Shown here: one piece after another, positions 21,689-44,668 of the stretch
How the letters are laid out: the number at the start of each line of letters is the position of its first letter
Numbering within the stretch: position 1 is the first letter of the stretch
Assembly (NCBI GenBank): GCA_903923925.1
Contig: CAIXZF010000070.1
Span: 1 to 59,018, forward strand
Origin: an uncultured Bacteroidales bacterium
GTDB lineage: Bacteria; Bacteroidota; Bacteroidia; Bacteroidales; CAIXZF01
Reading direction: 5' to 3'
Length of the DNA: 59,018 nucleotides
Made by a program: the position numbers and the translations under genes
The notes under the pieces: model-generated
What the model saw: only the letters and a program-made list of their open reading frames with translations
The model's database searches: none
What the model was told of the DNA's origin: nothing

Positions 21689-21693
21689 GATAT

Positions 21694-22428: not shown

Positions 22429-22512
22429 CCAGATTGTTTCGCGGTTGTATTTTCGGTTTTGGGAACCTTCTATCTCATATGAAGCTTTCAAATTCGGCTT
22501 TGTAAAAGTGTT

Positions 22513-26347: not shown

Positions 26348-27072
26348 AGTGTTTGCATCAGTGAGAGTTTCCCGGAACTAAGCCTGTAGAATTGATTTGT
26401 TTGCTTTGCCAGTTCAAGCGAATGCGTTACAATCAGCAATGCCATTTGATGCTCCCGGCTTAATTCTACCAGAAGCTTTCCCACAATACCGGCATTTTCA
26501 GCATCAAGTGAACCTGTAGGTTCGTCGGCTAAGAGCAAACGGGGTTTGTTAATTAACGCACGAACTACTGCTGTTCGCTGGCATTCCCCGACAGAAAGCT
26601 GATAAGGCCGTTTTTGCGAATGCTCCTTTAGCCCGACTCTTTCTATTAAATACAATGCACGATCGATGGTTTCTTTATGGTTGGATCTGTTTTTTCCCGG
26701 TAAAGTTGGCAGCAAAACATTTTCCAGAAGGTTAAGCTGCGGAATAAGATAATGTTGCTGGAATACATGTCCGATAAAGCGGTTTCGCAACGATGCCAGT
26801 TCTTTTTCATTAAGTGTATCTGTTGCTGTACCGTTTAAAAATACTATCCCGGAACTTGCCTTTTCCAGTGTCCCGATAATATTAAGCAGTGTGCTTTTTC
26901 CTGAGCCTGATGGACCAACAATTGCGATGGAGTCATTCCCGCAAATCTGAAAATTTATAGAATCAAGAACATGGTTTCGGATTGCAGTTCCGGGCTGCTC
27001 AAAATATTTGGAAATAGTTTTGAATTCTGCCAGTGCTGTAGATACCGTATCAGGGATTGGAATATGATACAT
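26344..27072 (-). CDS. ABC transporter ATP-binding protein, MacB/LolD-like
   Basis: 'GPSGSGKSTLLNIIG', 'LSVGECQRTAVVRAL', 'LLLADEPTGSLD'. ATGA overlap with the permease gene. Confidence 0.9.
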   Translation of the reverse strand: MYHIPIPDTVSTALAEFKTISKYFEQPGTAIRNHVLDSINFQICGNDSIAIVGPSGSGKSTLLNIIGTLEKASSGIVFLNGTATDTLNEKELASLRNRFIGHVFQQHYLIPQLNLLENVLLPTLPGKNRSNHKETIDRALYLIERVGLKEHSQKRPYQLSVGECQRTAVVRALINKPRLLLADEPTGSLDAENAGIVGKLLVELSREHQMALLIVTHSLELAKQTNQFYRLSSGKLSLMQTL

Positions 27073-28380: not shown

Positions 28381-28405
28381 TTTGCAATAATTTATAAGAA
28401 ACTAA

Positions 28406-28423
28406 GACATGCCATGGCATGTC
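28406..28423 (-). terminator. Palindrome GACATGCCATGGCATGTC followed by a U-rich tract on the minus strand. Putative terminator of the long minus-strand operon.
   Basis: 18-bp perfect palindrome. The minus-strand downstream sequence is 'TTAGTTTCTT'. Lies between the stop of 28447..31050 and the start of 27088..28380. Confidence 0.45.
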
Positions 28424-28446
28424 CATACAGAATTGTTTATGTGTTA

Positions 28447-31050
28447 CTAATGACCGAAGGCATAAACTTTTCCATCCTGAGCCCCGACCACAATAAATTC
28501 AGAAATAACCGCTGCTGTGCTTCCCGAAGGACTCCCGATGTCGAAGTTCCAGCACTCTTTGCCTGTGGAAATATTTAAAACAAGAAGTCTGCCCTCACCA
28601 GATACAATAATTACATAATTTCCTGCGATAACTGGCGATGCGTCGACCTTCCCCAGTACTTTTGTTTTCCAGAGTACTTTTCCTTTCAATGCATTAAAAC
28701 AATAAACATAATGATTCTGAGTGCCGGTGATAACTCTGCTTTCATCAATTGCAGGAGATGCAAGAAAGGACCCGCTGACTTCTGTTTGCCATAAAACTTT
28801 CTTTTGCCGGGTATTGATACAATAGAAAATACCATCATAATTGCCAAAAAAGGCTTTGTCTCCCTTAGTTGTAGGTGAGGCAGGAATGTAAGTTCCAATG
28901 TCGTTATTGCCAGTTTCCTTTCCTGTATCTGTATTTACATAGCGCAACATTCCGTCGCAACCACCGAAAACTGCATTTCTTCCGCTTATTGCAGGCGAAC
29001 CGTTTATGAAATTCTCTGTTGCGAATTTCCAGATTACTTTTCCGGAAGAAGCATCCAGGCAATACAGGTTAAAATCATAACTTCCCACAAGAATCCTTTT
29101 CTGAATCTTATCCGGACCGTATGTCCAGTTGCAGGCACCGGAAATCTGACCATCTGTTTTGTATTTCCATTTCAATTTGCCGCTATTTGCATCAAAAGCA
29201 AACAGAATACCCCCGAGTGATCCTATAAAAACGGTATTGTCAAGAATTAGGGGAGGAGCTTCTATCGCGGTTTTAGTATTGTATTTCCATTTTAACTGCC
29301 CTGCTGTTGTAAGTGCGTACAGATTTCCGTCGTTCGAGCCAATATAGATAATATCATTAAAAATTACTGCTGAAGATTTGATGGCATCTCCTGTTTTAAA
29401 TGTCCAGAGGAGTTTGAATGGCGGCGAAACAGGAGCAGCTGTGTTTCCGCTGAGTTGATTATCGCCCCTGAACGAGGGCCAGCAATTTGAGGCTTTCTGT
29501 TGGGCGAGTAATGGAATACTGAACAGAAATACGATCAGAAATGCAATTTTAAATGATAAAGCAGCTGTGGGACAGGCCTTTACGCATGCTTCTGCTTTAC
29601 TAGTGAGTGCTTTTTTAATAGATTCATTAAATGGAACACCAATTTCTACATCAAATCCCCGGCCTATATAAGTGAGTCCCGCGCTTTCTCTGTCTTCTCC
29701 GGCAATTTCAACACAAAGTCCGCAACGGATGCATTTTTGGGGTTCATATACTACAAGGTCATGCTGATAGGATTTAGTAAGAAGTTTTCTTTCAGAAGCT
29801 GCAAAATGATTCCTGTCTGCCTTATATTCATCTGAATAATTCCGAAGTTTGCAATTGCCGGCTTTGCGGCAGTCGCAATGTAGGCATCGTTTTGCTTCCT
29901 GAATTGCCTCCTTGCTGTTAAAGCCATTCAGAAATCCTTTTTCCGGTTCGAACCTATTGTCATCGGTACTTTCTTTCAGATATTCAAGCAGTTCAGATTG
30001 TGTAATTTTATTGATTCTTGAGTTGAATTTAATTCCGTGAGTTTCTGAAGTTCCGCTTAAGTAGGAGCTGGCTTTCATTGCTGCTGATTTACCTTGTGCC
30101 GCTGAACGGATGGCCATTTTTTGTTCACGGATGAAACTTCCGCAGGTGAAAACATTCTGAGGAAAAACTTCACCAAAAACACGTTTCGACTCCTCATCTT
30201 TAATTCCTGCTGCGAGAATAACAGCATCAAAATTCTCCTGAAAATCATTCCAGTTTTCTTTCGTTACCGAGTGGTTCATAATAAACTGGCCTCCCATTCT
30301 TCTGATAACATCTATATCAGCATCCAGCATAGTTCCTGGAAGAATTTCATCAGGAATTTCATACCGTAATGTTCCGCCTGGCTGTGAATTTTTATCGAAA
30401 AGGATGCAGGTATGTCCCGATTTGAGAAGGTAAAAAGCAGCTGAAAGTCCAGCGGGACCAGTGCCGATTACAGCGACCTTTTTCCCCGATTTTTCTGTTA
30501 AAGGAAGTTGAGGGATACTGCGATTGGAACCCACGGCAGTAAACCTTTTGAGCAAACAGATTGAGACAGCTCCGTCCAGACTTTTACGATGACAGGCTTT
30601 TTCGCAGGGTGCTGCACAAATATATCCCATTACAAGGGGTAAGGCAATTTCTTCCAGAACAACTTCAAGTGCTGTCTGAATATTTCCAACTGCAATCAAA
30701 CGATTCATGAGAGGGATATTCATAAAAGCAGGGCATGATAAACGGCAGGGAGCTTCACAATCGCCAACATGATCGCTTAAAAGAAGCTCAAGCGCTTCTT
30801 TTCGCGCAGCAAGAACATCAGGTGAATTCGTAATAAGCTGCATTCCCGACCCACATGGCATGGCACAGGAGGGGAACAGATTTCCTGTTCTCTGATCCTT
30901 AACCAGGCATACCATACAGGATGGATGGCAGGAATGATCCTTTAAATAACACATCGATGGAATCTGAATGCCAATAGAAGCAGCTGCCTGCATAACAGAT
31001 GTACCATCTTCAACTTCAATTTCCGTATTATTTACCGTTAATTTTATCAT
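28447..31050 (-). CDS. In-frame fusion of three parts. N-terminus: NuoG-type 2Fe-2S domain plus GltD/NfnB-like FAD/NAD(P)H Fe-S oxidoreductase plus 2x[4Fe-4S] ferredoxin. Middle: hydrophobic signal-peptide-like segment. C-terminus: PQQ-like 8-bladed beta-propeller.
   Basis: 'MIKLTVNNTEIEVEDGTSVMQAAASIGIQIPSMCYLKDHSCHPSCMVCLV' matches a NuoG/HydA N-terminal 2Fe-2S domain. Rossmann motif 'VAVIGTGPAGLSAAFYL' with 'DKNSQPGGTLRYEIP' matches GltD. Ferredoxin 'CIRCGLCVEIA...CVKACPTAAL'. Then 'KIAFLIVFLFSIPLLAQQKASNCWPSFRGDN' is followed by PQQ-type repeats ('...DGNLYALTTAGQLKWKY', 'LFAFDANSGKLKWKY', 'LYCLDASSGKVIWKF', 'VYCFNALKGKVLWKT'). The junction is at about nt 29495-29548. Confidence 0.7.
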   Translation of the reverse strand: MIKLTVNNTEIEVEDGTSVMQAAASIGIQIPSMCYLKDHSCHPSCMVCLVKDQRTGNLFPSCAMPCGSGMQLITNSPDVLAARKEALELLLSDHVGDCEAPCRLSCPAFMNIPLMNRLIAVGNIQTALEVVLEEIALPLVMGYICAAPCEKACHRKSLDGAVSICLLKRFTAVGSNRSIPQLPLTEKSGKKVAVIGTGPAGLSAAFYLLKSGHTCILFDKNSQPGGTLRYEIPDEILPGTMLDADIDVIRRMGGQFIMNHSVTKENWNDFQENFDAVILAAGIKDEESKRVFGEVFPQNVFTCGSFIREQKMAIRSAAQGKSAAMKASSYLSGTSETHGIKFNSRINKITQSELLEYLKESTDDNRFEPEKGFLNGFNSKEAIQEAKRCLHCDCRKAGNCKLRNYSDEYKADRNHFAASERKLLTKSYQHDLVVYEPQKCIRCGLCVEIAGEDRESAGLTYIGRGFDVEIGVPFNESIKKALTSKAEACVKACPTAALSFKIAFLIVFLFSIPLLAQQKASNCWPSFRGDNQLSGNTAAPVSPPFKLLWTFKTGDAIKSSAVIFNDIIYIGSNDGNLYALTTAGQLKWKYNTKTAIEAPPLILDNTVFIGSLGGILFAFDANSGKLKWKYKTDGQISGACNWTYGPDKIQKRILVGSYDFNLYCLDASSGKVIWKFATENFINGSPAISGRNAVFGGCDGMLRYVNTDTGKETGNNDIGTYIPASPTTKGDKAFFGNYDGIFYCINTRQKKVLWQTEVSGSFLASPAIDESRVITGTQNHYVYCFNALKGKVLWKTKVLGKVDASPVIAGNYVIIVSGEGRLLVLNISTGKECWNFDIGSPSGSTAAVISEFIVVGAQDGKVYAFGH

Positions 31051-33420
31051 TTATTGAATAATTACGGAATTTACAGGACAAATCTGCCGGCATATATCAC
31101 ACTTTATACATTTCTCGTGATCAATGTTATGCAGTTCATAAGGTTTAAATTCGATGGCATCAGCAGGGCATTGCTGAGCACATTTAGTACATCCGATACA
31201 ATCGTTTGTTATACAATAGGTTATTAATGGAAGGCATTTCCCGGCAGGGCAGATTCCTTTCAGATGAGCTTCATATTCCTCGCGGAAATAATGTAAAGTC
31301 GAAAGGATAGGGTTAGGAGCAGTTTTTCCCAGGCCGCAGAGGCTGCCGCTTTTAGTACTTCTGGCTAGCTTTTCCAGCCTGATAAGGTCAATTTCATCTG
31401 CTTTGCCTTTCCGGATATTTTCTAATATTTCAAGCATTCTCCTTGTACCTATTCTGCAAAAGGTACACCTTCCACACGATTGATTTTGAGTGAATGAAAG
31501 GAAATAATGTGCAATATCAACCATGCAATCTGTCTCATCAAGAACGATAAGTCCACCTGAACCCATCATAGAGCCAGCTGCTGCAAGTTCTTCAAAATCA
31601 ATGGCTAATTCTGCCTTAGATGCAGGAATACAGCCTCCAGAAGGGCCTCCGATTTGAACTGCTTTAAACTTCAATCCACCAGGAATACCTCCTCCGATTT
31701 CTTCCACAATCTGCCGGATCGTAATCCCCATAGGAACCTCAATAAGCCCCCCTCGCTTCACTTTACCGGCAAGGGCGAAAACCTTCGTTCCCTTACTGTT
31801 TGCTGTGCCATTAGCAGCAAATGCATCGGCCCCATGTTGCAGTATCCACGGAATCATGGAGAATGTTTCTGTATTGTTAATTAATGTGGGATGCTTGTGA
31901 AGCCCGCTAACAGCAGGATAAGGCGGTCGAAGCCTGGGGATTCCGCGTTTTCCTTCCACCGAAGCAATTAGTGCAGTTTCTTCGCCGCAAACAAAGGCAC
32001 CTGCACCTTCGAAAATTTCTATATCAAATGAAAACGTACTACCAAAAACAGATTGCCCGAGAATACCTTCTTTTTTACAGATAGCAAGTGCTTCGGCAAT
32101 CCGTTTAACAGCCAGAGGGTACTCAGCCCTGATGTAGAAAAGACCTTTGGTAGCAGACGTAGCGTAGGCAGCAATCAGCATCCCTTCTATTATCCGGAAT
32201 GGATACGACTCCAGCAGCATCCGGTCCATGAATGCACCAGGATCGCCTTCGTCACCGTTACAGATCAGGTATTTTTCTGCACTAATCTGATCTTTAACAA
32301 GTTGCCATTTTGTCCCAGTCGGGAAACCAGCGCCTCCTCTTCCTCTCAGACCACTATTCTTTATAATTTCAATGATCTGCTGTGATGATAACGAAGAAAG
32401 ACAATGTTCCAGAGCCTTGAAGCCTCCAGAATTTTTGTACTCCGTGAGATCGCAGGGTTTTAAAACTCCTCTGTTTTCGGTCGCTATTGCTAATTGAGGC
32501 CCTAAAAATTCTGATAGCGGTGTATCACGTTGTTCCCAGTTGTATTTCCGGAACGATTGCTGTTTTCCTTCCTCAATTACTCTTTCGAAAAGTCCTAAGA
32601 AATTGGATTTAAGTCTGTTAACAAGTCCTGAAGGTTGAAAATGCTTCAAAACAACAGCTCTCACCTCATCGGGTCTTATTTTTGCATAAAAGGCAGTTGG
32701 CTCTCCGGGTTTTACGATCTCCAGCACTGGCACCTGGTTACAGATTCCAACGCAGCCCACTTGTTTCACAATTACATCAAGCTTTGTCTGTTTTATTGTT
32801 CTGTCGAGTTCATTTTTTACTTCCATGCTGCCGCTCGCCGCACAACAAGAACCGAGACCGATACGAATTTCGCCTTTCCCATGCTGAATCTCAGACAACA
32901 TCTGAGTTTCAGATCTCATCTCAAGAGGTTGAGAGGTAGTTGACCTCAGTTGAAAATCAATCAAAACTTCACCAACTGTCTGAGCTGAAACATGCCCATA
33001 GGTTACTTCATCAATTTTTACAACAGGTGCCAGTGTGCAACACCCAAGGCAGGCAACCTTTTCAATGGTAAATTCCCCTGCAGTATCTGTATCCGAATCT
33101 TCTTCCAACTTTAATTCACGGCGGAATGCATCAAGAACAGTTAGTGCGCCTTTCACATGGCAGGCCGTTCCTGTGCATACTTTTATAATATGTTTTCCAG
33201 CTTTTTTGTGCCGGAATTGTGAATAGAATGTTGATATTCCAGTAATTGATGAAGCTGTGATTTCTGTGATCTCACAAACTCTCTGCAAAGCTTCCTCGGG
33301 CAGGTAGTTGAATTTCTGTTGAATTTCCTGAAGAATAGGGATAACAGCCTCGGGAGAAGTAGTATGCCGGGCTACAATTCTGTCGACAATTGACGAGATG
33401 TTTTCTTCCTTTTTCTCCAT
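31051..33420 (-). CDS. Fused NuoE-like (2Fe-2S) and NuoF-like (FMN, NADH, 4Fe-4S) protein with C-terminal 2x[4Fe-4S] ferredoxin. HydC-HydB/StnB-StnC-like NADH-binding flavoprotein.
   Basis: NuoE motifs 'CTGTACHVKGA' and 'CLGCCTLAPV'. NuoF motifs 'LRGRGGAGFPTGTKW', 'GEETALIASVEG' and 'QSCGRCTFCRIGT'. C-terminal 'CIGCTKCAQQCP' and 'CIKCDICRQICP'. The first ATG is at 33420 and forms a TAATG overlap with the stop of the upstream gene; the ORF-track start at 33435 is a TTG. Confidence 0.85.
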   Translation of the reverse strand: MEKKEENISSIVDRIVARHTTSPEAVIPILQEIQQKFNYLPEEALQRVCEITEITASSITGISTFYSQFRHKKAGKHIIKVCTGTACHVKGALTVLDAFRRELKLEEDSDTDTAGEFTIEKVACLGCCTLAPVVKIDEVTYGHVSAQTVGEVLIDFQLRSTTSQPLEMRSETQMLSEIQHGKGEIRIGLGSCCAASGSMEVKNELDRTIKQTKLDVIVKQVGCVGICNQVPVLEIVKPGEPTAFYAKIRPDEVRAVVLKHFQPSGLVNRLKSNFLGLFERVIEEGKQQSFRKYNWEQRDTPLSEFLGPQLAIATENRGVLKPCDLTEYKNSGGFKALEHCLSSLSSQQIIEIIKNSGLRGRGGAGFPTGTKWQLVKDQISAEKYLICNGDEGDPGAFMDRMLLESYPFRIIEGMLIAAYATSATKGLFYIRAEYPLAVKRIAEALAICKKEGILGQSVFGSTFSFDIEIFEGAGAFVCGEETALIASVEGKRGIPRLRPPYPAVSGLHKHPTLINNTETFSMIPWILQHGADAFAANGTANSKGTKVFALAGKVKRGGLIEVPMGITIRQIVEEIGGGIPGGLKFKAVQIGGPSGGCIPASKAELAIDFEELAAAGSMMGSGGLIVLDETDCMVDIAHYFLSFTQNQSCGRCTFCRIGTRRMLEILENIRKGKADEIDLIRLEKLARSTKSGSLCGLGKTAPNPILSTLHYFREEYEAHLKGICPAGKCLPLITYCITNDCIGCTKCAQQCPADAIEFKPYELHNIDHEKCIKCDICRQICPVNSVIIQ

Positions 33421-35210
33421 TATTTCGAGATGCAATAAATGTTTTTATTTCCCCTCAGAAAGATCATTCCATCGGCAAAAGCTGGTGTGCAGAAGGAACC
33501 TTCTCCAAGCTGTGGCTCAGCAATTGAAGTAAAGATTTTGTCGGCCTTGAAAATATGCATAATGCCTTTGCTGTCAAGCAGATAGATTTTTCCTTCAACA
33601 AGCACAGGCGACGAATAAACCTTATTGCCAAACTCTTTTTCCCATAATTTCTTGCCGGTTTTCGCTTCATAACATGCAACAGTGCCATAACTGGTTGTAA
33701 GGAAGAGGTAATTTTCTGTAGCAACAGGGCTTGGCACATCCGATAAATACTCGGTATCTTCCCAAAGAATTTTTGGTGTATCGCCAATCTGTATCGCTGA
33801 AAGTTTCGAATATTCGTTCACTGCATATACAATGCCATCAGCGTATGCCAGAGAAGGCCCGACTTCTCCCGATATACAGTCGATTTTCCACAGTTCTTTT
33901 CCGGTAACTGCATCATAAGAGGCCACACTAGGATCGGCGGCCAGAATAATCTCCACTCTACTGCCAGTATTTACAACAATGGGTGAAGCCCAGGAAATCC
34001 GCACCTTGCGTGGGGTATTCCAAATAACGTCTCCTGTTTTCCCGGCAAGTGCTGTAATGCTGGCGCTGCCACTCTGATCGTATTGAACGATGAGTTTATC
34101 CTGAAACATCATCAATGATGAGGAGTGCCCGTAATGATTTTTAGGCAGGCCAAGGTTTTTACTCCAAACCTTTTCACCTTCCATATTGAGTGCAATCAAA
34201 TCACCATTTGCAAAAATGGCATAAACTCTTCTGCCATCGGTAGTTAGTGTGGGAGCAGAGAAACCGGTTTCAATATTAACTTTTGGTGCTTGTCCGGGGC
34301 TGCCGGGAATTTTATCCACAGTGGTTTTCCAGACAAGCTTTCCGGAATTCACATCCAGGCAATATACTTCCCGGGTTTTTTCGTTAGCCCCTGACAGGAA
34401 AAGTTTATCTTTCCAAACAATCGGGGAATTATATCCCTGCAAAGGAATATTCGTCTTCCATTTGATATTTTTACCGCTCTTCCCATCCCAATTTACAGGG
34501 ATATTTTTCTGCCATGCAATGCCATTTCCACCCGGACCCCGGAAAGAAGTGAAATTAGAGCGAATTTCCTGAATTCCGGGAAAACCGTCGACAGAGGAAG
34601 AAGATGCAACAGTGTTTGAATCTGGAGAATCATTGGTATTGCCATCTAATTCTTGCGCACTGTTCTTCTCAATTCCATTAAAACGTTCTGAAGAATCTGC
34701 CGATTTTGAGTTCATTAACAAGGCAATGTCAATTTCCCTTCCCAATTCATTATGCGAAAGCCAGGCAAAAATGAAGGCCGTTACAAATAGAAATATTCCC
34801 GCTCCCGCTATCCAGTTTCTGCTTATTTTACGAAGTTCGAATATGTTAAACTTCTTAGAATCAGGAACTTCAGGAAGTTTATGTCTGAAATATTCAATGA
34901 TCTGCAGACAGATAATTATTACAAGGATGCTGCAAAACAAAAGTAAGCCACCCGTTTTTACCTGCCATTGATTGGTGAAGAAAGCGCGACGGGCCAGCAG
35001 ATCCAGTTCACGTATTTGGTCTCTAAGCTGCTGATTTTCAGGATTTGCCTGCAACTGATCAACCATCGAATTTAAGGCTTTCGTGTTCAGTGGATCAGCA
35101 CGTTGAAGCTGCAAGTAGTTAACAATAATCAATACGCAAAGCAGCACAGCAAGCACAGCGCTTATGATGGCGATGTTTTGCAAAAGGCGGATGTTTGGTT
35201 TGATTATCAA
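33420..35210 (-). CDS. Membrane-anchored PQQ-like beta-propeller protein. Three N-terminal TM segments, a low-complexity linker, then the propeller. TTG start.
   Basis: TM 'NIAIISAVLAVLLCVLIIVNYL', 'GGLLLFCSILVIIICLQII', 'AGAGIFLFVTAFIFAWL'. Repeats 'VYCLDVNSGKLVWKT', 'LIALNMEGEKVWSKN', 'ITALAGKTGDVIWNT', 'VASYDAVTGKELWKI', 'VACYEAKTGKKLWEK'. N-terminal propeller motif 'FTSFRGPGGNG'. Confidence 0.7.
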   Translation of the reverse strand: MIIKPNIRLLQNIAIISAVLAVLLCVLIIVNYLQLQRADPLNTKALNSMVDQLQANPENQQLRDQIRELDLLARRAFFTNQWQVKTGGLLLFCSILVIIICLQIIEYFRHKLPEVPDSKKFNIFELRKISRNWIAGAGIFLFVTAFIFAWLSHNELGREIDIALLMNSKSADSSERFNGIEKNSAQELDGNTNDSPDSNTVASSSSVDGFPGIQEIRSNFTSFRGPGGNGIAWQKNIPVNWDGKSGKNIKWKTNIPLQGYNSPIVWKDKLFLSGANEKTREVYCLDVNSGKLVWKTTVDKIPGSPGQAPKVNIETGFSAPTLTTDGRRVYAIFANGDLIALNMEGEKVWSKNLGLPKNHYGHSSSLMMFQDKLIVQYDQSGSASITALAGKTGDVIWNTPRKVRISWASPIVVNTGSRVEIILAADPSVASYDAVTGKELWKIDCISGEVGPSLAYADGIVYAVNEYSKLSAIQIGDTPKILWEDTEYLSDVPSPVATENYLFLTTSYGTVACYEAKTGKKLWEKEFGNKVYSSPVLVEGKIYLLDSKGIMHIFKADKIFTSIAEPQLGEGSFCTPAFADGMIFLRGNKNIYCISK

Positions 35211-35228
35211 GGGGATTTGTTTTAACTT

Positions 35229-35414
35229 TTAATTTAATTTCATCATCAGAAAATCATCCAGATTGATTTGTTTTATTCCCTGGTCGATAAGCTGATACAA
35301 GAGGTAACTTTTTCCAACTCTTCGCTGTCCTGTAATTACCTTAATGATTTGTTTGCCAATAAACAGTTGAATTTTAGCAATATATTCCGGCCGGACTGTG
35401 TATTTATGTTTCAT
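35229..35414 (-). pseudogene. Remnant 61-aa N-terminal fragment of an AAA-family ATPase gene (Walker A only)
   Basis: '...KVITGQRRVGKSYLLYQLI' is a Walker A motif resembling the N-termini of ~400-aa Bacteroidota AAA/DUF4143 ATPases. The ORF stops after 61 aa, and the space downstream is occupied by the next gene. Confidence 0.4.
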
Positions 35415-35443
35415 GTATATCGTAAAAAAAACTGATGAATAAT

Positions 35444-36706
35444 TTATACTTTAACCGGACAATACTCAATGCATCTGTTACAACTTAAGCATGTTCCTTT
35501 ATTTGGAACGTAATCTGGATTGTAATTTGTAATAAGCCGGCCAGCGATCAGAAGGCCAAAGGTTAATCCCATGAAACCACCCAGTAACCAGCCACCGATA
35601 TAGAATTTGCGCAGGATTTCATTTGTTTCTTCAAGTAGTTGTTTAGCAGGCTTTCCGGAGGATTTGAAAGCTTTTATCTCATAGGATTCAGGTTTTTCCT
35701 GCATTTTTACCGGATCCATTACAGCTTTGGCGAGCCTCACACGAGGATTAACTTCTGCCAATGTTGTGTGTAACTTTGAACCGGTGTAACCGCCAGCTGC
35801 AATTAAAACAGGAATTAGAATGCATATCAGTATGAATTTTTTAAGTAACTCTTGTTTTGTTTCCGGATTTTTTACAGTGATGGGGATATTGATGGCATCA
35901 TAGGGACAAGTATTTTCACAAAGCTTACATTGAATGCAATTAGCAGGAGTGATGGTCATATGCTTTTTTGAAAACCGGCTGAACCAGTTCAGGATAACAC
36001 CATACGGACAAAGAAAACGACAATAGGGTCTTGCAATAAAAACGCCGCTGCCTAGCAGAATACCTGCAAACACAAACATCCCGAATGAGGCATTAAGCCT
36101 GAATATTCCAACAAAGGGATCGTATCTGCAGATGATGAAATCGGTGCCAGTTGCAGCATAGAGTACGGCCAAACCAAGGTATAAATAGGGCAAGAGTCCA
36201 AGAACGGAATTGAGTCGTGAGCCCATTTTTTGAGGTTGTATTGCTACCAGGTCCTGCATTGCCCCGAATGGACAAACACCTGCACAAAAGGTTCGACCAT
36301 AAAATAAGGTAAATACCAGCGGAATTACAAAAAATGCCAATGCAGTGAAGGGCAAAGTGTAAGCTGAATAGAAAAGTCCAAGGCTTACATTCTGAATAGC
36401 TCCGATTGAACATACACAACCTTCGCGGTAAAAACCAAAATATGCCAGGCTGAAAATTGAAATCCAGAAAACGCCTTTGCGGCTGCGTTTTTTAAGTATT
36501 AACCAGCTAATCAGAGATAAAGTGCTTAACAAAACCAATACATCCAGGTAGGCGAGGAGTTCATAACGCGGGCCGGGTTGCAAAGTTTCAGGTTGGGTAT
36601 AAGCTGATTCAAATTCAGGTTTTGGAAAGCGTTGTTTGGCAAAACTTTCCATCGACTGAAACAAAGTAAGCAGGAACAACAGAAATAAAATGGCCTTCTT
36701 TCTCAT
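35444..36706 (-). CDS. NapH/MauN/CcoG-like polytopic membrane iron-sulfur protein
   Basis: Signal peptide 'MRKKAILFLLFLLTLFQSMESFA'. Cytoplasmic-loop CX3CP motifs 'FCAGVCPFGAMQDL' and 'YCRFLCPYGVILNW'. C-terminal ferredoxin motifs 'CIQCKLCENTCPYDAI' and 'CLSCNRCIEYCPVKV'. Confidence 0.8.
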   Translation of the reverse strand: MRKKAILFLLFLLTLFQSMESFAKQRFPKPEFESAYTQPETLQPGPRYELLAYLDVLVLLSTLSLISWLILKKRSRKGVFWISIFSLAYFGFYREGCVCSIGAIQNVSLGLFYSAYTLPFTALAFFVIPLVFTLFYGRTFCAGVCPFGAMQDLVAIQPQKMGSRLNSVLGLLPYLYLGLAVLYAATGTDFIICRYDPFVGIFRLNASFGMFVFAGILLGSGVFIARPYCRFLCPYGVILNWFSRFSKKHMTITPANCIQCKLCENTCPYDAINIPITVKNPETKQELLKKFILICILIPVLIAAGGYTGSKLHTTLAEVNPRVRLAKAVMDPVKMQEKPESYEIKAFKSSGKPAKQLLEETNEILRKFYIGGWLLGGFMGLTFGLLIAGRLITNYNPDYVPNKGTCLSCNRCIEYCPVKV

Positions 36707-37368
36707 CCTTCCTGCTGAGTTTTATCGTTTGCCAGTCTTTCTGTACCAAAACCGTTTAGCAAATAAGGTTTGTTTGCCGGCACCCGGCTGAAGGCTTCCG
36801 AGGGACAAACCCTTGCGATAGAGCATTCGTTGCAGTTTACGCAGCGGTTGTGCCGGATTTGCAGCTGCAAGGAGCCGTTGCCAAAGGCATCACAACCCTT
36901 CACACATTTGGCGCAGCCAATGCATAAGAGTTCATCAACAGTATATTCATAAAAGGGATCCTCTATGAACTTTCTTTTTAAGGCATTTGTCGGGCACAGC
37001 TGGTTTTCGGCAGCTGTTGTAAGGGTTTTTGTTTCAGGTTTGAAATAACCACCACAAAGGTCGCAGTAGCCGCACATCACATATGCATGTGTGCACTTTA
37101 CTGCCGAAGGCGTTATTACACAAGCAGTTGCACATCGTCCGCATTGAATACATTTTGATGGGTCGAGCTGCCATACTGTACTCCTGAGGCTTACGGCTTC
37201 AGCTTGATTGCAGCTGTCGGATAAGCTGCAACTCCCGCAGGCAAAATTAAACTTGCAATTCTCATCATCCCTGCGTGGGCGCAGCATGAGAGTTCCTCCC
37301 AGAACTACAAGCCCGGTTAATAATCCTCCTCGTACGCATTTCGCAATAAATTCCCTTCTGCTAGGCAT
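36703..37368 (-). CDS. Tat-exported NapG/MauM-like poly-ferredoxin with about four [4Fe-4S] motifs
   Basis: Twin-arginine signal 'MPSRREFIAKCVRGGLLTGLVVLGGTLML'. The ATG is at 37368; the ORF-track start at 37410 is a TTG. Cys clusters 'CIQCGRCATAC', 'CGYCDLCGG', 'CIGCAKCVKGC', 'CVNCNECSIARVCP'. ATGA overlap with the NapH-like gene. Confidence 0.8.
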   Translation of the reverse strand: MPSRREFIAKCVRGGLLTGLVVLGGTLMLRPRRDDENCKFNFACGSCSLSDSCNQAEAVSLRSTVWQLDPSKCIQCGRCATACVITPSAVKCTHAYVMCGYCDLCGGYFKPETKTLTTAAENQLCPTNALKRKFIEDPFYEYTVDELLCIGCAKCVKGCDAFGNGSLQLQIRHNRCVNCNECSIARVCPSEAFSRVPANKPYLLNGFGTERLANDKTQQEG

Positions 37369-37375
37369 ACGATTT

Positions 37376-38365
37376 TCAATTATTATTTTTACTATCGATA
37401 TTCGGTGCAAAAACCCTTACCATTTTCTTTACAGGATCAAGTACTATAATTCTATCCTTTGAATCAACACAAAGATCCAATCCCCTGGTGCCTTCTTTGA
37501 ACGACTGCGGTAGTGCTACTACACATTTCAACTTTCCTTCCGAAGTGTATATTTTAACCCTTTCAATCCCTTTTTCACTTGTCACAAAAGAACCATCTTT
37601 CAGTATTGTAAAGTGGGATGGATTACAGCATCCACAAAAGCCCTCTATCTCCATAGAAGTAATACCCCAGCTTTTGATGAGATTCCCTTCAAAATCAAAC
37701 TTCTCCATCAGATGTCGGCCAGGATTAGCAACCCAGAATTCATTTATTCCGGAAATTCCGAGATCAAAATACGGACTTGGCACCACAAAACCAGGAATAC
37801 CCCTGTGTGGGTCTTTATCACCGATATGCCCAATTAACTTGCCAGAAATATCATATTGGTAAACGCTTGTTAAGCCGGCATCTGCCACAAATACATTCTT
37901 ACCATCGCTGGAAATTGAAGTAATAATTGATGATTGACTCACCGGTTCCCATTTCTCCTTCAGTTTACCATCCATGTCAAGAATTTCAATCCGATCTTCC
38001 ATACCAAGGAGGATATTTTTATCCGGATCTATTGTAATGCATAAAGCATTTCCATCAAGAGCTATTCTTTTGAGAAGATTACCAGTTTTAGTAAAGATTT
38101 CAAGAAATTTATTCCCAGCAACATAGATCCTGTCGGAATAATCCGTAGCAACACCATGCATCTCAAGCATTTGTGGTCGGAAGGCAAGGTTTTCATTATA
38201 GGACACACTTACAGAATCAAACTTATTCAGGTGTTGTATATCATATTCATAAGGATTGCTTTTACTGTATTTAACACTACTATTACTGAAAAGATCGTGT
38301 GCGATGTATGTCACTACTGAAAAAAATAAGGCTAAACCAGCAATGATTAATATTTTATGTTTCAT
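37376..38365 (-). CDS. NHL-repeat beta-propeller protein, secreted or N-terminally anchored
   Basis: N-terminal hydrophobic 'ILIIAGLALFFSVVTYIA'. NHL-like units 'KNVFVADAGLTSVYQYDISGKLIGHIG' and 'EFWVANPGRHLMEKFDFEGNLIKSWG'. Confidence 0.6.
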   Translation of the reverse strand: MKHKILIIAGLALFFSVVTYIAHDLFSNSSVKYSKSNPYEYDIQHLNKFDSVSVSYNENLAFRPQMLEMHGVATDYSDRIYVAGNKFLEIFTKTGNLLKRIALDGNALCITIDPDKNILLGMEDRIEILDMDGKLKEKWEPVSQSSIITSISSDGKNVFVADAGLTSVYQYDISGKLIGHIGDKDPHRGIPGFVVPSPYFDLGISGINEFWVANPGRHLMEKFDFEGNLIKSWGITSMEIEGFCGCCNPSHFTILKDGSFVTSEKGIERVKIYTSEGKLKCVVALPQSFKEGTRGLDLCVDSKDRIIVLDPVKKMVRVFAPNIDSKNNN

Positions 38366-38366
38366 G

Positions 38367-39842
38367 CTATTTTGCTTTAATGTCGATGCAAACCATTTGC
38401 TTCGAATCTCTCATTAATAAATATCCGCCCGTAATTGCAAGAGGTCCCCATGAATCTTGTCCGTCGATGATTTTCTTTTTACCGAGGACTTTAAATCCTG
38501 ATGGAGAAGCAGTTGCAATAGTTAGTTCACCATCATCATTGAGGATGAAGAACTTGTTATCGGCGAGTATATAAGGCCCGAGACCAAATCTAACTGTTTT
38601 TCCGCTACTCATTATCATTTTCATACAATTATCCGATTTGTAGCATACAAACTGGTTACGGGTTTCACCTGCATCCTTGGGCTGAACACCATAAACATAT
38701 CCTTTATAGAAAACAGGTGTTTGCTGCTCTGAGGCCATCCCTTCCAGTGGCTTATATTTTTGTAGTACTTCCGCAGAAAAAGTTCCTCTGTTCTCTTTAA
38801 GTTGGATAAGTAAACTTCCAGCACCATATCCTGCGGTAAACAGGATTTTTCCATCATCAAGAATACAGGGTGAAGGCGCAACTACCGAGGGTGAAAATGC
38901 AGTGGATTCCCAAAGTATTTTTCCCTTGTTTTTACCACTGCCAGAAACTCCGCAAATTCCACCAATGGCAATGTAAACATACATTTTTTCTCCGTTGAAG
39001 GTCATTGGCATTATTGATGAATGCGACATTTTCCAGTTATGCGGATTGGGAGTTTCCCAAACTTTTTTACCTGTTTTGCAATCTATTCCTATTAAAAGAG
39101 AGCTTCCTCCGGTTGCAATAATTGCTGTATCCTTGTCAATTAACGGGCATTGTCCGGTATACCAGAATGGCACCTCTGTTTTGTATTCCTTTGCCAGATC
39201 AATTCCCCAGTTTAATTTTCCACTGATCCTGTCAACGCACATCACCTGGCAGCGAGGACCTATAGTAAGCACGTATTTTTCATTCACAGCCGGAATGGTC
39301 CTTGATAAGCCATGATTTCTTTTCAACTTTACATGATACCAGCGCCTCCATAATTCAACCCCGCTTTTCAGGGAAAAACAGCGGAGCATATCCGATCTTT
39401 TAATTTCGTCATAATCAATAAGATAAACCCGGCCATCATACACTGCTGCTGCTGCATGTCCTTCTCCCAGACTTACTTTCCATAAAATTTTCGGTGCTCC
39501 TGCATCAAAGTTAGTTATGAGACGAATGTTCTCTCTGTTGATGTTATCGAAATCAGCTCCCCTGAAACGCGGCCAGCGGGTATCCGGTATATCAGTAACG
39601 CTTGTAAATGTCGAAAAACTATCGCCAATGATCACTTGTTCGGGAGGAAGCTGATTACCCTTATTCTTGTTGTCCATTCCTGGAACCGATAAGGTAAAGG
39701 TTTTAACAGGATTGTATGCCAGCCACCAAATCAGGATAACAACAGCAATAATTGCTATTGAAATGAGAACAAGACTGGCAGGTTTTCTGAACATTCTCCT
39801 ATTTTTTTCTTCTGATATCATAGGCGAGCAAAACCTGACCAT
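38367..39842 (-). CDS. Membrane-anchored PQQ-like beta-propeller protein with a single N-terminal TM
   Basis: TM 'LVLISIAIIAVVILIWWLAY'. 'WPRFRGADFDN' motif. Repeats 'QVMCVDRISGKLNWGI' and 'LIGIDCKTGKKVWET'. The alternative ATG at 39794 would remove the 44-nt overlap with the upstream gene. Confidence 0.7.
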   Translation of the reverse strand: MVRFCSPMISEEKNRRMFRKPASLVLISIAIIAVVILIWWLAYNPVKTFTLSVPGMDNKNKGNQLPPEQVIIGDSFSTFTSVTDIPDTRWPRFRGADFDNINRENIRLITNFDAGAPKILWKVSLGEGHAAAAVYDGRVYLIDYDEIKRSDMLRCFSLKSGVELWRRWYHVKLKRNHGLSRTIPAVNEKYVLTIGPRCQVMCVDRISGKLNWGIDLAKEYKTEVPFWYTGQCPLIDKDTAIIATGGSSLLIGIDCKTGKKVWETPNPHNWKMSHSSIMPMTFNGEKMYVYIAIGGICGVSGSGKNKGKILWESTAFSPSVVAPSPCILDDGKILFTAGYGAGSLLIQLKENRGTFSAEVLQKYKPLEGMASEQQTPVFYKGYVYGVQPKDAGETRNQFVCYKSDNCMKMIMSSGKTVRFGLGPYILADNKFFILNDDGELTIATASPSGFKVLGKKKIIDGQDSWGPLAITGGYLLMRDSKQMVCIDIKAK

Positions 39843-41049
39843 GCCTGATATACATCACTCCTTTATGTATTACAGGGTGGGAAAAATGTTCCTTTGTGCC
39901 GACCGTAATTTTAAATGTGCTAACGATTTCCGGTTTATTTTTGTTCGGACGAATCAGGTAAACATCTCCGGGAATAGAATAATAATAAAGCAGATTATCA
40001 GCATAAATAACTGATCCTCTGCCAATCTTCAGGGAATCAAGTGCCTGCCCGGTATTTGCATCAAAAACCCTGAAGTCTTTCCTGCTGAAATAGCAGGAAT
40101 ACAGATAATCACCCAGCTTAATAAAGCCTCCCATATAATTGTCAATCACATCGTTGCGCCAGAGCTGTGTTACTTCTTTGCCATCTTCTGAGAGTTTTAG
40201 TTTTACAGCGCCATTGCCATCGCCTTCAAAGTAATAAATGAAACCATCTTCATACCAGGCTGAGTTGCTGTGCGTATCACCATTTCCTGATTTACGCTCC
40301 TCAACTGGAATATTTACCTGCTCATGTGTCCATAAAAGTTCTCCGGTTTTTGCATCAATACCAAGCATTGCATAGGCAGTGAACGTAACAAGCAGTGTTC
40401 TTGAAGGCAGTGTTATCAGAATTGGTGAATTATAGGCAGGAGATTCCCCTTTTCCCTTACAGATCCAAACAATTTTCCCTGAGAAACGGTTAAACGCAAC
40501 CACGTTAGTGTCAATTCCCCCTGGGACAAGGTAAACAAGATCATTGTATATCAATGGCGATTCTGAATGTCCATGATAAGTGAACCTTCCATGAAGATCT
40601 TTGACCATATCCACAAACCATTTTCTAGTACCGGTTTTCAATTCAAAACATGCCAGGTTTCCCAGGCCTGAACAGGTATAGATCAAATCCTCAGTAACAG
40701 TGGGAGTTGACCGCGATCCGGGGAAAGTTTTTACCCATTCTTTGCCGTAATCCGACCTCCATTGCAGTTTGCCTTTATGGTCGAATGCGAAAAGATAGCC
40801 AATGCTGTCTTTTTCACCCATAACATAAATCCTGTCTTCAGTAATTGAAGGTGATCCATATCCATTTCCGATGCTATCGGCCTGCCATCGCTGAGCAGGC
40901 CCTCCCTCAGGCCAGCTTGTTAATAGGTCATTTTCAACGAAAATACCTTTCCGCTCAATCCCTCTCCATTGTGCAAAAGCCTGGGAATAAGAATAATAAC
41001 CTGAAGCTGTTAAAACCAGAACAAGAATAACCCGAACAATTGCCTTCAT
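39799..41049 (-). CDS. Secreted PQQ-like beta-propeller protein
   Basis: Signal peptide 'MKAIVRVILVLVLTASGYYSYSQA'. 'AQWRGIERKG' motif. PQQ-type repeats 'YLFAFDHKGKLQWRS', 'LACFELKTGTRKWFV', 'VVAFNRFSGKIVWIC', 'MLGIDAKTGELLWTH'. Confidence 0.75.
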   Translation of the reverse strand: MKAIVRVILVLVLTASGYYSYSQAFAQWRGIERKGIFVENDLLTSWPEGGPAQRWQADSIGNGYGSPSITEDRIYVMGEKDSIGYLFAFDHKGKLQWRSDYGKEWVKTFPGSRSTPTVTEDLIYTCSGLGNLACFELKTGTRKWFVDMVKDLHGRFTYHGHSESPLIYNDLVYLVPGGIDTNVVAFNRFSGKIVWICKGKGESPAYNSPILITLPSRTLLVTFTAYAMLGIDAKTGELLWTHEQVNIPVEERKSGNGDTHSNSAWYEDGFIYYFEGDGNGAVKLKLSEDGKEVTQLWRNDVIDNYMGGFIKLGDYLYSCYFSRKDFRVFDANTGQALDSLKIGRGSVIYADNLLYYYSIPGDVYLIRPNKNKPEIVSTFKITVGTKEHFSHPVIHKGVMYIRHGQVLLAYDIRRKK

Positions 41050-41053
41050 GGTA

Positions 41054-42268
41054 TTATTGTTTTAGATTGTACACCATCAGCGAGGTTCCATGCCGAACAT
41101 AGAGCCGGCCATTTGCAATAACCAGGTGAGCCCAATGCTGATTTGCCCCAAAGGGTACTTTAAAACTGCTGATTTTCTTATAGCCGGTAGAAAGAGGTTC
41201 GACCAATGCGATTTCACCACTTTCACCATAACAATATAACATTCCATCCGCCGAAATGATAGTTCCCCTGTTCACAGGCTTTTCTGAGCCAAGTTCTTTT
41301 CCGGTTTTCCAGTCGAGACTCCACCAGGCTTTACCTGAATCGTCAGAGCCATAAATAATCCCATTAAGCAGAACAAAGCCGCCCATTCTGTTGTCAAGTG
41401 AAGTATTCCGCCACAATTCTGTTACTGAACTGCCATCAGCAGCCACTTTGAGCATAATCCCTCCTTTGCCATATCCTGAAGCACAATAAAGCTGACCATC
41501 ATGAAATAATGGAGTATTTGCGTGTACAGAGTATTTATTCGGCCACTCCTGGCTCCACAATAATGTACCGTTTTCAGCATCAATACCCAGAATAGAGCTG
41601 GCTGTTTGTGTTACAACAATTTTACGATTTGGCAAACGTATCAGTGCAGGGGAACAATATGCACTTTTCTCACCATTTCCCTTACACGACCACAAAAGCT
41701 TCCCGCTCATCCTGTCAAGAGCTATTACATTCTTTTCTTTTCCGCCTGCAGTGCAGAATAATTTATTCCCATCAGCAAGCAGGTTTTCTGTAACGCCCCA
41801 TTGTATATTCTCTGCGCCATAATCTTTCATGATATCAACTTCCCAGATTTTAGCGCCATTTTCAGCAGTCATACACACAATCTTACCAAAAGAACTCATA
41901 ATGTAGAGTTTCCCATCATAAAACAGTGGGGTTGAACGGACTCCCGGCCAGCTTTCTGTCCATTCTTCTGCAAATGGAACCTGCCAGAGCAGCTTCCCAT
42001 CCAGTGAAAAAGCAAAGATAGTGCCCATTCCACTGATAGTACCCGCTGTATAAACGCGGTCTTTTGTAACTGCTGCTGAGGAATGTCCGTCGCCCAGCTC
42101 ATCAAAATGCCACAAAAGTGCAGGTCCAGCTTCTGGCCAGGCCTTACTTAAACCGGTTTCAGCATAGATTCCATCGCGGTTAATTCCGCGCCATTGAGCA
42201 ATTTCCTGTGAAAATACAAGGTTTCCAACAAAGAAAAGAAGGCAGAGAAGTGTAATTTTTTTTAGCAT
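41054..42268 (-). CDS. Secreted PQQ-like beta-propeller protein, paralogue of 39799..41049
   Basis: Signal peptide 'MLKKITLLCLLFFVGNLVFSQE'. 'AQWRGINRDG' motif. Repeats 'IFAFSLDGKLLWQV', 'IVCMTAENGAKIWEV', 'VIALDRMSGKLLWSC', 'ILGIDAENGTLLWSQ'. Confidence 0.75.
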   Translation of the reverse strand: MLKKITLLCLLFFVGNLVFSQEIAQWRGINRDGIYAETGLSKAWPEAGPALLWHFDELGDGHSSAAVTKDRVYTAGTISGMGTIFAFSLDGKLLWQVPFAEEWTESWPGVRSTPLFYDGKLYIMSSFGKIVCMTAENGAKIWEVDIMKDYGAENIQWGVTENLLADGNKLFCTAGGKEKNVIALDRMSGKLLWSCKGNGEKSAYCSPALIRLPNRKIVVTQTASSILGIDAENGTLLWSQEWPNKYSVHANTPLFHDGQLYCASGYGKGGIMLKVAADGSSVTELWRNTSLDNRMGGFVLLNGIIYGSDDSGKAWWSLDWKTGKELGSEKPVNRGTIISADGMLYCYGESGEIALVEPLSTGYKKISSFKVPFGANQHWAHLVIANGRLYVRHGTSLMVYNLKQ

Positions 42269-44614: not shown

Positions 44615-44650
44615 TTCTGCAGGGACATGCCATGGCATGTCCCTGCAGAA
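44615..44650 (+). terminator. 36-bp perfect palindrome TTCTGCAGGGACATGCCATGGCATGTCCCTGCAGAA immediately after the stop codon. Terminator-like hairpin or protein-binding palindrome.
   Basis: The palindrome is visible directly and lies 1 nt after the TAA at 44611-13. It shares an 18-bp core with the palindrome at 28406-28423. Confidence 0.45.
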
Positions 44651-44668
44651 CATAAAGATTGTAGGCCT

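Follow-up and report, generated by a model that had tools for sequence, protein, structure and literature searches.

Gene content and organization of the cluster

A 59,018-nucleotide (nt) stretch of contig CAIXZF010000070.1 (assembly GCA_903923925.1) from an uncultured Bacteroidales bacterium, hereafter the window, carries on its minus strand a cluster of nine open reading frames (ORFs) and one gene remnant lying head to tail between positions 28447 and 42268 (g1 to g9, Table 1), which we describe here as a candidate trans-membrane redox system. Among its products there are a flavoenzyme core of the electron-bifurcating type (g8), a flavoprotein joined to a beta-propeller (g9, parts g9a and g9b), a ferredoxin exported by twin-arginine translocation (Tat) (g5), a polytopic Fe-S membrane protein (g6) and several further beta-propeller proteins (g1 to g4 and g7). 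ORF calls, together with Pfam and NCBIfam profile searches of the cluster proteins, which provided the domain calls used throughout, confirmed the tight packing and the set of proteins that an earlier note, made from the sequence alone, had listed for this interval. That note had counted ten genes and a remnant; the remnant is there, and the genes number nine, given that the flavoprotein and the fifth propeller form a single ORF of 867 amino acids (aa).

The stop and start codons overlap between g5 and g6 (ATGA) and between g7 and g8 (TAATG), those of g8 and g9 abut (TAAATG), and g1/g2 and g3/g4 are spaced by 1-4 nt. Translational coupling is predicted at most of the cluster junctions, and we count it in favour of one system. 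Two gaps are larger, one of 233 nt between g6 and g7, which holds the remnant of an AAA_14-family ATPase gene, and one of 66 nt 3' of g9, which contains a hairpin (28405-28424). Judged from its sequence, the remnant is a selfish-type insertion outside the redox system, and it is absent from related loci. Scans for consensus promoters and terminators gave no excess over the shuffled expectation, and an Rfam search of the whole window for riboswitches or other RNAs gave zero matches.

Pfam and motif scans detected no H-cluster, no molybdopterin domain and no heme-c CxxCH motif in any cluster protein, in agreement with the earlier observation that a hydrogenase, formate dehydrogenase or other known catalytic partner is lacking. 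A cytochrome-based conduit was likewise rejected, since the cluster proteins contain no CxxCH motif.

Table 1. Features of the cluster and of the neighbouring genes in the window
Feature	Coordinates	Strand	Description
g1	41054-42268	-	404 aa, secreted PQQ_2-type beta-propeller, first gene of the cluster
g2	39799-41049	-	416 aa, secreted PQQ_2-type beta-propeller, paralogue of g1
g3	38367-39842	-	491 aa (475 aa from ATG at 39794), membrane-anchored PQQ_2-type propeller
g4	37376-38365	-	329 aa, membrane-anchored six-bladed NHL propeller (predicted)
g5	ORF 36703-37410; 36703-37368 from ATG at 37368	-	221 aa, Tat-exported polyferredoxin (predicted)
g6	35444-36706	-	420 aa, polytopic NapH-family (PF12801) Fe-S membrane protein
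AAA_14-family ATPase gene remnant	35229-35414	-	61 aa, between g6 and g7, weak AAA_14 match
g7	33420-35210	-	596 aa, three N-terminal transmembrane helices, low-complexity linker and PQQ_2-type propeller
g8	ORF 31051-33435; 31051-33420 from ATG at 33420	-	789 aa, BfuC-BfuB fusion
g9	28447-31050	-	867 aa, flavoprotein, transmembrane helix and propeller in one ORF
g9a (N-terminal part of g9)	29560-31050	-	BfuA-like electron-transfer protein
g9 linker and transmembrane helix KIAFLIVFLFSIPLLA	29497-29559	-	hydropathy peak at residues 489-520
g9b (C-terminal part of g9)	28447-29496	-	fifth PQQ-like propeller, predicted periplasmic
d1	27088-28380	-	GT4 glycosyltransferase, invariant N-terminal CxxC, co-conserved
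d2	26344-27072	-	LolD/MacB-type ABC ATPase, co-conserved
d3	23057-26347	-	duplicated FtsX-type permease, 1096 aa, about 10 transmembrane helices, co-conserved
Large repetitive secreted protein	67-7380	+	read from translation
Large repetitive secreted protein	9465-12728	+	read from translation
Large repetitive secreted protein	44627-46621	+	read from translation
Large repetitive secreted protein	46756-51939	-	read from translation
Large repetitive secreted protein	51979-56910	-	read from translation

The g8 protein is a fusion of BfuC- and BfuB-like subunits

The g8 protein contains, in this order, a NuoE-like [2Fe-2S] domain, a second [2Fe-2S] domain, a NuoF-type site for flavin mononucleotide (FMN) and NADH with its [4Fe-4S] cluster, and a C-terminal pair of [4Fe-4S] clusters. 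The Pfam families Complex1_51K, SLBB, NADH_4Fe-4S and Fer4_21/Fer4_7 were recognized in it, and 2Fe-2S_thioredx matches twice, at residues 18-160 and at about 198-276. Residues 190-792 are co-linear with NfnB (9n5u_B, expectation value (E) 2e-199) with the corresponding chains 9bov_B and 8oh5_B and with the HydB subunits of bifurcating hydrogenases (E of 1e-185 to 1e-160), and these matches are stronger than those to NuoF of complex I (about 1e-100), which cover the core only.

The cofactor ligands are conserved among 64 orthologues. Those of the NuoE-like [2Fe-2S] cluster (C87, C92, C129 and C133) and of the second [2Fe-2S] cluster (C197, C198, C228 and C232) are invariant or nearly so, and invariance extends to the ligands of the NuoF cluster (C654, C657, C660 and C700), to a His724/Cys729/Cys734 site that may serve the sixth cluster (B2), and to the C-terminal [4Fe-4S] pair (C746-756 and C776-786). 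According to a survey of the Bfu family (Schut et al. 2022, PMC9304861), the Bfu core comprises six clusters in BfuB and BfuC, and extra cluster domains separate bifurcating BfuBC cores from their non-bifurcating NuoEF homologues. By its domains and cofactor sites g8 belongs with the bifurcating BfuBC cores, and the corresponding catalysis is predicted; the claim that it is a NuoE-NuoF-ferredoxin fusion with bifurcating features is thus upheld by the extra cluster domains and the invariant Cys residues.

Compared with NfnABC and StnABC (8OH5, 9BOV and 9N5U), g8 corresponds to their subunits B and C, has the same set of cofactor domains and joins the two in one polypeptide. With HydABC and the Bfu family the cluster shares the BfuBC core with FMN, the extra [2Fe-2S] cluster and the C-terminal 2x[4Fe-4S], as well as a BfuA wire, whereas H-cluster, NiFe, pterin, F420 and rubrerythrin modules are all absent from it.

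A BfuA-like flavoprotein without NAD(P)H-binding domain is fused to a propeller

The N-terminal part of g9 (g9a) carries motifs for one [2Fe-2S] cluster, for two [4Fe-4S] clusters of the GltD-type Fer4_20 domain, for flavin adenine dinucleotide (FAD) binding (GxGxxG) and for two more, NuoG-like [4Fe-4S] clusters (Pfam Fer2_4, Fer4_20 and NAD_binding_8), with G196/G198/G201 and Cys98/102/106/145/149/153/165 invariant. Its best matches in the Protein Data Bank (PDB) are StnA (8oh5_C), NfnA from Caldicellulosiruptor (9bov_A) and an archaeal NfnA (9n5u_A), the best matches to these complexes ranging from 1e-199 to 1e-68, and it represents the N-terminal two thirds of their subunit A. The alignment with StnA covers residue 4 to about 290 and continues from 465 onwards, so that about 175 StnA residues face about 15 in g9. 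From the fold, we take the stretch at about 290-464 of StnA to be the NAD(P)H-binding Rossmann domain, and g9a retains one GxGxxG only. The same gap is common to 10 of the 10 aligned homologues, fused and unfused, down to 42% identity. When 1.84 billion representative proteins were searched, most of the top 150 clusters had a length of 490-560 aa and an unbroken match, the architecture without the domain; canonical forms of 645-711 aa, with a match in two parts, came up no closer than about 40% identity. Also missing is the formate-dehydrogenase-like domain with which subunit A ends. These comparisons indicate that g9a has neither an NAD(P)H-binding domain nor a C-terminal catalytic domain and that it probably binds FAD.

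The earlier description of this protein as a GltD/NfnB-like FAD oxidoreductase holds for the 2Fe-2S, Fer4_20 and FAD motifs and fails for the NAD(P)H-binding domain; the Nfn/Stn-like NADPH site that it implied is ruled out by the deletion of that domain, which all homologues examined share with the window protein. Genes of this kind are a likely annotation trap, since they resemble 'Nfn' or the 'glutamate synthase small subunit' but lack the NADPH-binding domain.

The reading frame of g9 is uninterrupted, with no stop codon between the flavoprotein and propeller parts. An identical gene call of 867 aa was present at 4 of the 4 places shown, out of 17 contigs, from several assemblies, that carry the NapH-like gene of this organism, and its recurrence across assemblies argues against a sequencing artefact. 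The transmembrane (TM) helix KIAFLIVFLFSIPLLA begins 7 residues past the last cluster ligand, Cys493, so close that the cytoplasmic wire would end at the membrane in fused forms. Elsewhere the two parts are mostly separate genes, encoding about 520 and about 370 aa, and the g9 helix corresponds there to the signal peptide of the propeller; fused forms recur at only 42-53% identity to the window protein (P0002-P0008 and locus L003). Unlike in NfnABC/StnABC, the counterpart of subunit A is here linked to a TM helix and a periplasmic propeller, either by fusion or as a neighbour, and the genes are clustered with those of membrane and periplasmic Fe-S proteins.

Two other proteins contain the domain-less BfuA-like module in a different setting, P0372 (1133 aa), in which it is fused to a complete GltD-like domain with Pyr_redox and Fer4, and P0416 (951 aa), in which it is fused to a URO-D-like domain. 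These fusions suggest that the module is reusable as an electron-transfer adaptor.

A polyferredoxin and a NapH-like membrane protein

The g5 protein has Fer4 matches in Pfam and 16 Cys residues that are invariant in 41 orthologues, sufficient for four [4Fe-4S] clusters, and its twin-arginine motif RR-x-F (R18, R19 and F21 in ORF numbering) is also invariant. The adjoining g6 protein matches Fer4_5 (PF12801, the NapH family) in two stretches with 59 bits, and contains an invariant CX3CP pair (Cys141/145-Pro146 and Cys229/233-Pro234) and an invariant CxxCxxCxxxCP pair for 2x[4Fe-4S] (Cys257/260/263/267 and Cys406/409/412/416). According to hydropathy, two extra TM helices split this ferredoxin domain. 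Three further Cys residues (C97, C99 and C193), on the predicted periplasmic side, are invariant too.

The two proteins had been described as NapG-like and NapH-like, which is right for their architecture and family and goes too far for the specific models: g6 scored 46 bits with TIGR02163 (cut-off 213) and 41.5 bits with NF007013 (cut-off 234), below both NapH/MauN cut-offs, and the NapG/MauM model was absent among the best 25 of the 36 NCBIfam matches of g5, with E up to 10. We therefore regard g6 as related to NapH only at the level of family and architecture, and g5 as NapG-like in architecture only. Neither molybdopterin nor cytochrome c genes, of the napA/napB/napC kind, were found in the cluster or in related loci, and identity with a nos, nap or mau cluster was rejected given that no nap, nos or mau genes are present. 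What is shared with NapGH, and with MauMN and NosGH, is a polytopic protein that combines a CX3CP pair with a cytoplasmic 2x[4Fe-4S], together with an adjoining, overlapping gene for a Tat-exported ferredoxin with four [4Fe-4S] clusters; g6 differs by its extra TM helices and extra conserved Cys residues, and the likely electron donor would here be the Bfu module instead of quinol. In two species g5 and g6 form a single ORF (L034:3280-5154, 624 aa, and L053:839-2752, 637 aa), in which a hydrophobic stretch is retained directly before the conserved motif QRFPKPEF.

The propellers form distinct and conserved groups

PQQ_2 (PF13360) matches g1 (98 bits), g2 (77 bits), g7 (105 bits) and g9b (130 bits), and g3 is matched as well; the best Pfam match of g9b is Beta-prop_ACSF4 (200 bits). 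The g1 and g2 proteins are secreted, the hydrophobic N-terminus of g1 being a signal peptide, and are 39% identical to each other, and many related genomes carry a single gene of the g1/g2 type. The other propellers are TM-anchored, g3 by one N-terminal helix (residues 17-49), g7 by segments at residues 6-38, 82-110 and 132-153, and g4 and g9b likewise. The best conserved of all is g3, which is 52-76% identical between loci and in which about 110 residues reach a conservation of 97% or more. The propellers split into at least four orthogroups that are 20-26% identical between groups and are each kept across species, which argues for non-redundant roles and not for casual duplication.

These proteins share the repeat families PF13360 and PF01011 with BamB, with pyrroloquinoline quinone (PQQ) alcohol dehydrogenases and with tetrathionate hydrolase, all eight-bladed. 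Nevertheless, the propellers are not ordinary BamB orthologues, a possibility raised in the earlier note: their scores with TIGR03300 (69, 40, 27, 76 and 144 bits) lie far below the cut-off of 285, no lipobox Cys follows their signal peptides, three carry TM anchors instead, and five PQQ-type paralogues from at least four orthogroups stand in one cluster, whereas BamB is present once per genome. Nor do they match the quinoprotein dehydrogenase model over its full length: four of them scored 45, 37, 61 and 76 bits with TIGR03075 (cut-off 480), g3 gave no match, and the PF01011 matches span only 40-200 of the 595 profile positions. Searched against PDB sequences, the orthologue profiles of g3 and g9b gave matches at the level of the repeat only (BamB, PQQ dehydrogenases and designer propellers), and g9b proved most similar to highly symmetric propellers of archaeal surface proteins. 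A match of g3 to tetrathionate hydrolase (E 3e-5) is weak and out of register, and offers a precedent at most. Tetrathionate hydrolase is a cofactor-free, periplasmic member of the PQQ-like group that acts on inorganic sulfur compounds.

The g4 protein falls just below the Pfam threshold for NHL (19.5 bits, cut-off 20), and its AlphaFold2 model (predicted local distance difference test (pLDDT) score of 86.7) is a predicted six-bladed NHL propeller. Foldseek aligned this model with the NHL domains of TRIM2 and Thin in the PDB (target-normalised TM-score 0.8, E 5e-16); the PDB matches were to generic NHL domains only (TRIM2, Thin, Brat and the designer 'Pizza') and included no enzyme. Its vicinal pair Cys246-Cys247 (GFCGCCNP) is invariant among orthologues.

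The cluster is conserved across Bacteroidales

One genome per GTDB species was scanned with the flavoprotein alignment, and relatives of the domain-deleted type were detected in at least 555 GTDB species. We kept 80 loci for comparison, with homologue listings that comprise the best 120 matches, close relatives from Bacteroidota. The loci belong to Bacteroidales in the broad sense, save one metagenome-assembled genome labelled Chlorobiota, and the carriers include Lentimicrobiaceae, Prolixibacteraceae, Marinifilaceae, Rikenellaceae and Draconibacterium, with Maribellus luteus XSD2 and Labilibaculum euxinus A4 as cultured representatives. In 55 loci the sequence extends 9.9 kb or more 5' of the flavoprotein gene, and of these g8 was retained in 54, g7 in 53, g6 in 52, g4 in 51, g5 in 50 and g3 in 45; on the other side, 48 loci extend far enough to be counted, with g9b in 46, an ABC ATPase and an FtsX permease in 45 each and a glycosyltransferase in 42. 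The shared order on one strand is g3-g4-g5-g6-g7-g8-g9a-g9b-GT-ABC-FtsX, found in about 50 species at protein identities of 40-76%. The co-localization of flavoprotein, NapGH-like and propeller genes, which the earlier note had proposed to look for in other genomes, is therefore well borne out, with g4 to g8 in the same order in 50-54 of the 55 loci each, and the conserved unit reaches position 23057, beyond the interval of 28447-42268 first delimited.

Unrelated genes were inserted at cluster junctions in several loci, namely IS200-like transposases (5 loci), RhuM (4), 23S-rRNA-IVP (4) and DUF1016/YhcG nucleases (3); the insertion-bearing loci include L008, L014, L016, L020, L023, L033, L058-L064, L068 and L073, and the gene order is undisturbed in them. 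The two kinds of fusion, of the flavoprotein with a propeller and of g5 with g6, also appear to tie the parts together.

At the g7/g8 junction, six species carry a gene for a MaoC-like dehydratase of about 154 aa (L008, at 6068-6532, L020, L022, L023, L033 and L034). Two other loci carry at this place a hybrid sensor with PAS, histidine-kinase and receiver domains (L039:4211-7558 and L053:4697-7405), which may regulate the cluster.

A putative Bfu enzyme with a redox partner outside the cytoplasm

We postulate that the cluster encodes one membrane-associated redox machine, a Bfu-family flavoenzyme whose third redox partner would lie outside the cytoplasm, and we give this reading a slightly better than even chance. 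As a first step, g8 would exchange electrons with NADH through FMN, and with ferredoxin through the 2x[4Fe-4S] at its C-terminus. The wire of g9a, with one [2Fe-2S], four [4Fe-4S] and probably FAD, would then bring the electrons to the inner face of the membrane, in keeping with the Bfu survey, in which BfuA carries electrons between the core and a variable module for the third substrate (PMC9304861). The cytoplasmic 2x[4Fe-4S] of g6 would accept electrons from g9a for transfer across the membrane, and the four-cluster ferredoxin g5 would deliver them to the propellers, four or five of the PQQ-like kind (g1/g2, g3, g7 and g9b) and the NHL propeller g4, which together would form a platform. NapH-like proteins have been described as modular transmembrane electron links that work, among other partners, with the beta-propeller enzymes NirS, ExaA and NosZ (Meheust et al. 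2021, PMC8238504). For the earlier idea of an electron conduit to the propellers, the parts are indeed present, and complex formation, the path through the membrane, its direction and a redox role of the propellers are predictions.

Outward flow seems somewhat the better guess, with NADH and reduced ferredoxin re-oxidized together onto a periplasmic or external acceptor, and this preference comes from physiology and not from sequence. HydABC reportedly re-oxidizes NADH and ferredoxin jointly, onto protons, and the known carriers of the cluster are fermenters in need of electron sinks. In a more specific form, which we put forward tentatively and consider rather doubtful, the system would be a heme-free and quinone-independent conduit made of Fe-S clusters throughout, in which a Bfu core takes an extracytoplasmic couple as third substrate and the cofactor-poor propellers, one of them with a vicinal Cys pair, serve as a new periplasmic catalytic platform, for example for sulfur or polysulfide, disulfides or insoluble acceptors.

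Several observations weigh against a single machine of this kind. NapGH of E. coli is a quinol dehydrogenase, and on this precedent g6 and g5 might draw on menaquinol instead of the Bfu module. Three loci (L019, L025 and L029) carry the flavoprotein genes beside unrelated genes, with no NapGH-like genes or upstream propellers nearby, and all 80 loci come from one order-level lineage, so that the synteny could be partly inherited and not selected. The 233-nt gap and the hairpin at 28405-28424 allow for internal transcription boundaries. The AlphaFold2 model of g6, built from a 48-sequence alignment, has a pLDDT of 52, too poor for a test of a cysteine path through the membrane, and the hydrophobic stretch in the g5-g6 fusions fits poorly with a topology in which the ferredoxin and the N-terminal segment of g6 after it both lie in the periplasm. 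Finally, no recognizable cofactor or metal site was found in the propellers, for which a scaffold role is possible.

Alternative interpretations

Electrons could also run the other way, with the propellers oxidizing a low-potential periplasmic donor and g5 and g6 feeding g8 and g9a, which would bifurcate to NADH and reduced ferredoxin. Bfu enzymes are reversible, according to PMC9304861, periplasmic oxidases, among them the PQQ enzyme ExaA, also deliver their electrons to NapH-like units (PMC8238504), and the propellers belong to the wider PQQ-like superfamily; nonetheless, their 37-76 bits are far below the PQQ-dehydrogenase cut-off of 480, and no donor-specific cofactor motif was found in them. 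The known carriers, being fermenters that need electron sinks, do not favour this direction either, and we consider it unlikely.

Somewhat less probable still is the view that the cluster joins independent neighbours, namely a soluble enzyme of the Bfu type whose exposed FAD would serve a cytoplasmic substrate, a separate quinol-dependent system of NapGH-like proteins and propellers, and an unrelated glycosyltransferase/ABC operon. The quinol dehydrogenase activity of E. coli NapGH, cited in PMC8238504, would fit such a division, as would the separation of the two halves in L019, L025 and L029, the other partners of the domain-less BfuA module in P0372 and P0416, and the fact that unrelated genes can sit between the cluster genes. 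What speaks for one system instead is that such insertions have left the order intact in about 50 species, that the flavoprotein is fused to the propeller through a TM helix in several lineages, and that start and stop codons touch across the supposed boundaries, at g7/g8 and at g8/g9.

It is very improbable that g8 and g9a are the missing NADH-oxidizing N-module (the NuoEFG equivalent) of the 11-subunit NDH-1 of Bacteroidota, placed beside periplasmic genes by chance. Clusters of nuo genes without nuoEFG do occur in the Bacteroidetes/Chlorobi group (PMC3534657), and g8 and g9a together hold equivalents of NuoE, of NuoF and of the N-terminal cofactors of NuoG. However, no nuo gene was found in the window or among the annotated cluster genes and insertions of the 80 loci, the neighbours of g8 and g9a being g6, g5 and the propellers, and g8 is nearer to the bifurcating NfnB and HydB than to NuoF. 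Moreover, g9a is without the large C-terminal domain of NuoG, which docks on NuoCD and NuoI.

An ordinary Nfn/Stn-type NADH/ferredoxin:NADP+ transhydrogenase is the least probable of all, even though the closest solved relatives of g9a and g8 are StnABC (8oh5) and NfnABC (9bov and 9n5u) and PMC9304861 records Nfn-type BfuB in Bacteroidetes, and we rejected the canonical form because the NADPH-binding Rossmann domain, about 175 residues of StnA, is unmatched in the window protein and in all homologues examined, with a single GxGxxG left.

Relation to known systems and possible significance

A membrane-associated Bfu enzyme with an extracytoplasmic partner, as we postulate here, would depart from the relatives described so far. 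All characterized Bfu enzymes that we found act on cytoplasmic substrates, and the membrane-bound types, Mbh-Bfu and Nuo-Bfu, are predictions (PMC9304861); a third module made of a NapH-like/polyferredoxin pair and propellers is not mentioned in the passages retrieved from that survey, nor do the words 'propeller' and 'PQQ' appear in it. With NosR, NirI, PceC and the NapH-like flavinylated systems (PMC8238504) the cluster shares a membrane Fe-S link of the NapH family, whereas Pfam detects no FMN-binding domain in its nine proteins, and ApbE was not encountered among its genes. It would further differ from them in having a four-cluster ferredoxin as the periplasmic relay, a Bfu module on the cytoplasmic side, and propellers outside known enzyme families.

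No publication on this cluster was found among open-access papers and bioRxiv preprints, and it looks like an undescribed route for electrons out of, or into, the cell. If this holds true, the cluster would provide anaerobes with a third means, beside hydrogenases and Rnf, of balancing NADH and ferredoxin, and fermentative Bacteroidales with an external electron valve that would do the work of hydrogen formation. Electrons would then also reach the outside of the cytoplasm without cytochromes, in a phylum in which, to our knowledge, multiheme cytochromes are few. The system could be more than a variant of Bfu and NapH-like enzymes if the propeller platform proves catalytic.

Downstream and flanking genes

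The conserved unit continues downstream with d1, d2 and d3. The d2 ATPase of the ATP-binding cassette (ABC) transporter is LolD/MacB-like, with 217 bits in the LolD model, below the cut-off of 308. The start of d3 overlaps the stop of d2 (ATGA), and d3 has FtsX domains (PF02687 listed) and an ADOP-like NCBIfam match. The pair thus resembles MacB, LolCDE and FtsEX (type VII ABC systems), d3 being an ADOP-like duplicated permease; no adaptor or outer-membrane partner was seen. Type VII ABC systems, which work by mechanotransmission, spend cytoplasmic ATP on periplasmic work. In d1, Cys16 and Cys19 of the motif FYCGNC and His142 are invariant and His34 is nearly so, and this CxxC/His set could be a metal or redox site; such a set is not known as a usual feature of GT4 enzymes. 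The MacB-type transporter and the GT4 protein probably serve assembly or substrate handling, and they are tied to the redox genes by synteny only.

A gene for a TlpA/ResA-like secreted thiol-disulfide oxidoreductase (CSVC) follows 28 nt past d3 (22513-23028, minus strand); no homologue of it was found among the 80 related loci, many of which end short of that position. Directly downstream there is a polysaccharide-type gene set (13108-22491), read from translations, with a methyltransferase, a TPR membrane protein, GT2 glycosyltransferases and an ABC-2 permease, whose partner ATPase has a long C-terminal extension and is Wzm/Wzt-like. On the other side, divergent from g1, lies a gene for a Band_7/flotillin-like membrane protein of 690 aa (42541-44613, plus strand), and a Band_7 gene of 684-690 aa occupies the same place in other assemblies of the same organism. 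The window also encodes five Thr/Ser/Asn-rich repetitive secreted proteins of 664-2437 aa with many Ig-like or PKD-like repeats (Table 1), one of them covered by a domain search, which presumably resemble cell-surface proteins or type IX secretion cargo of Bacteroidota.

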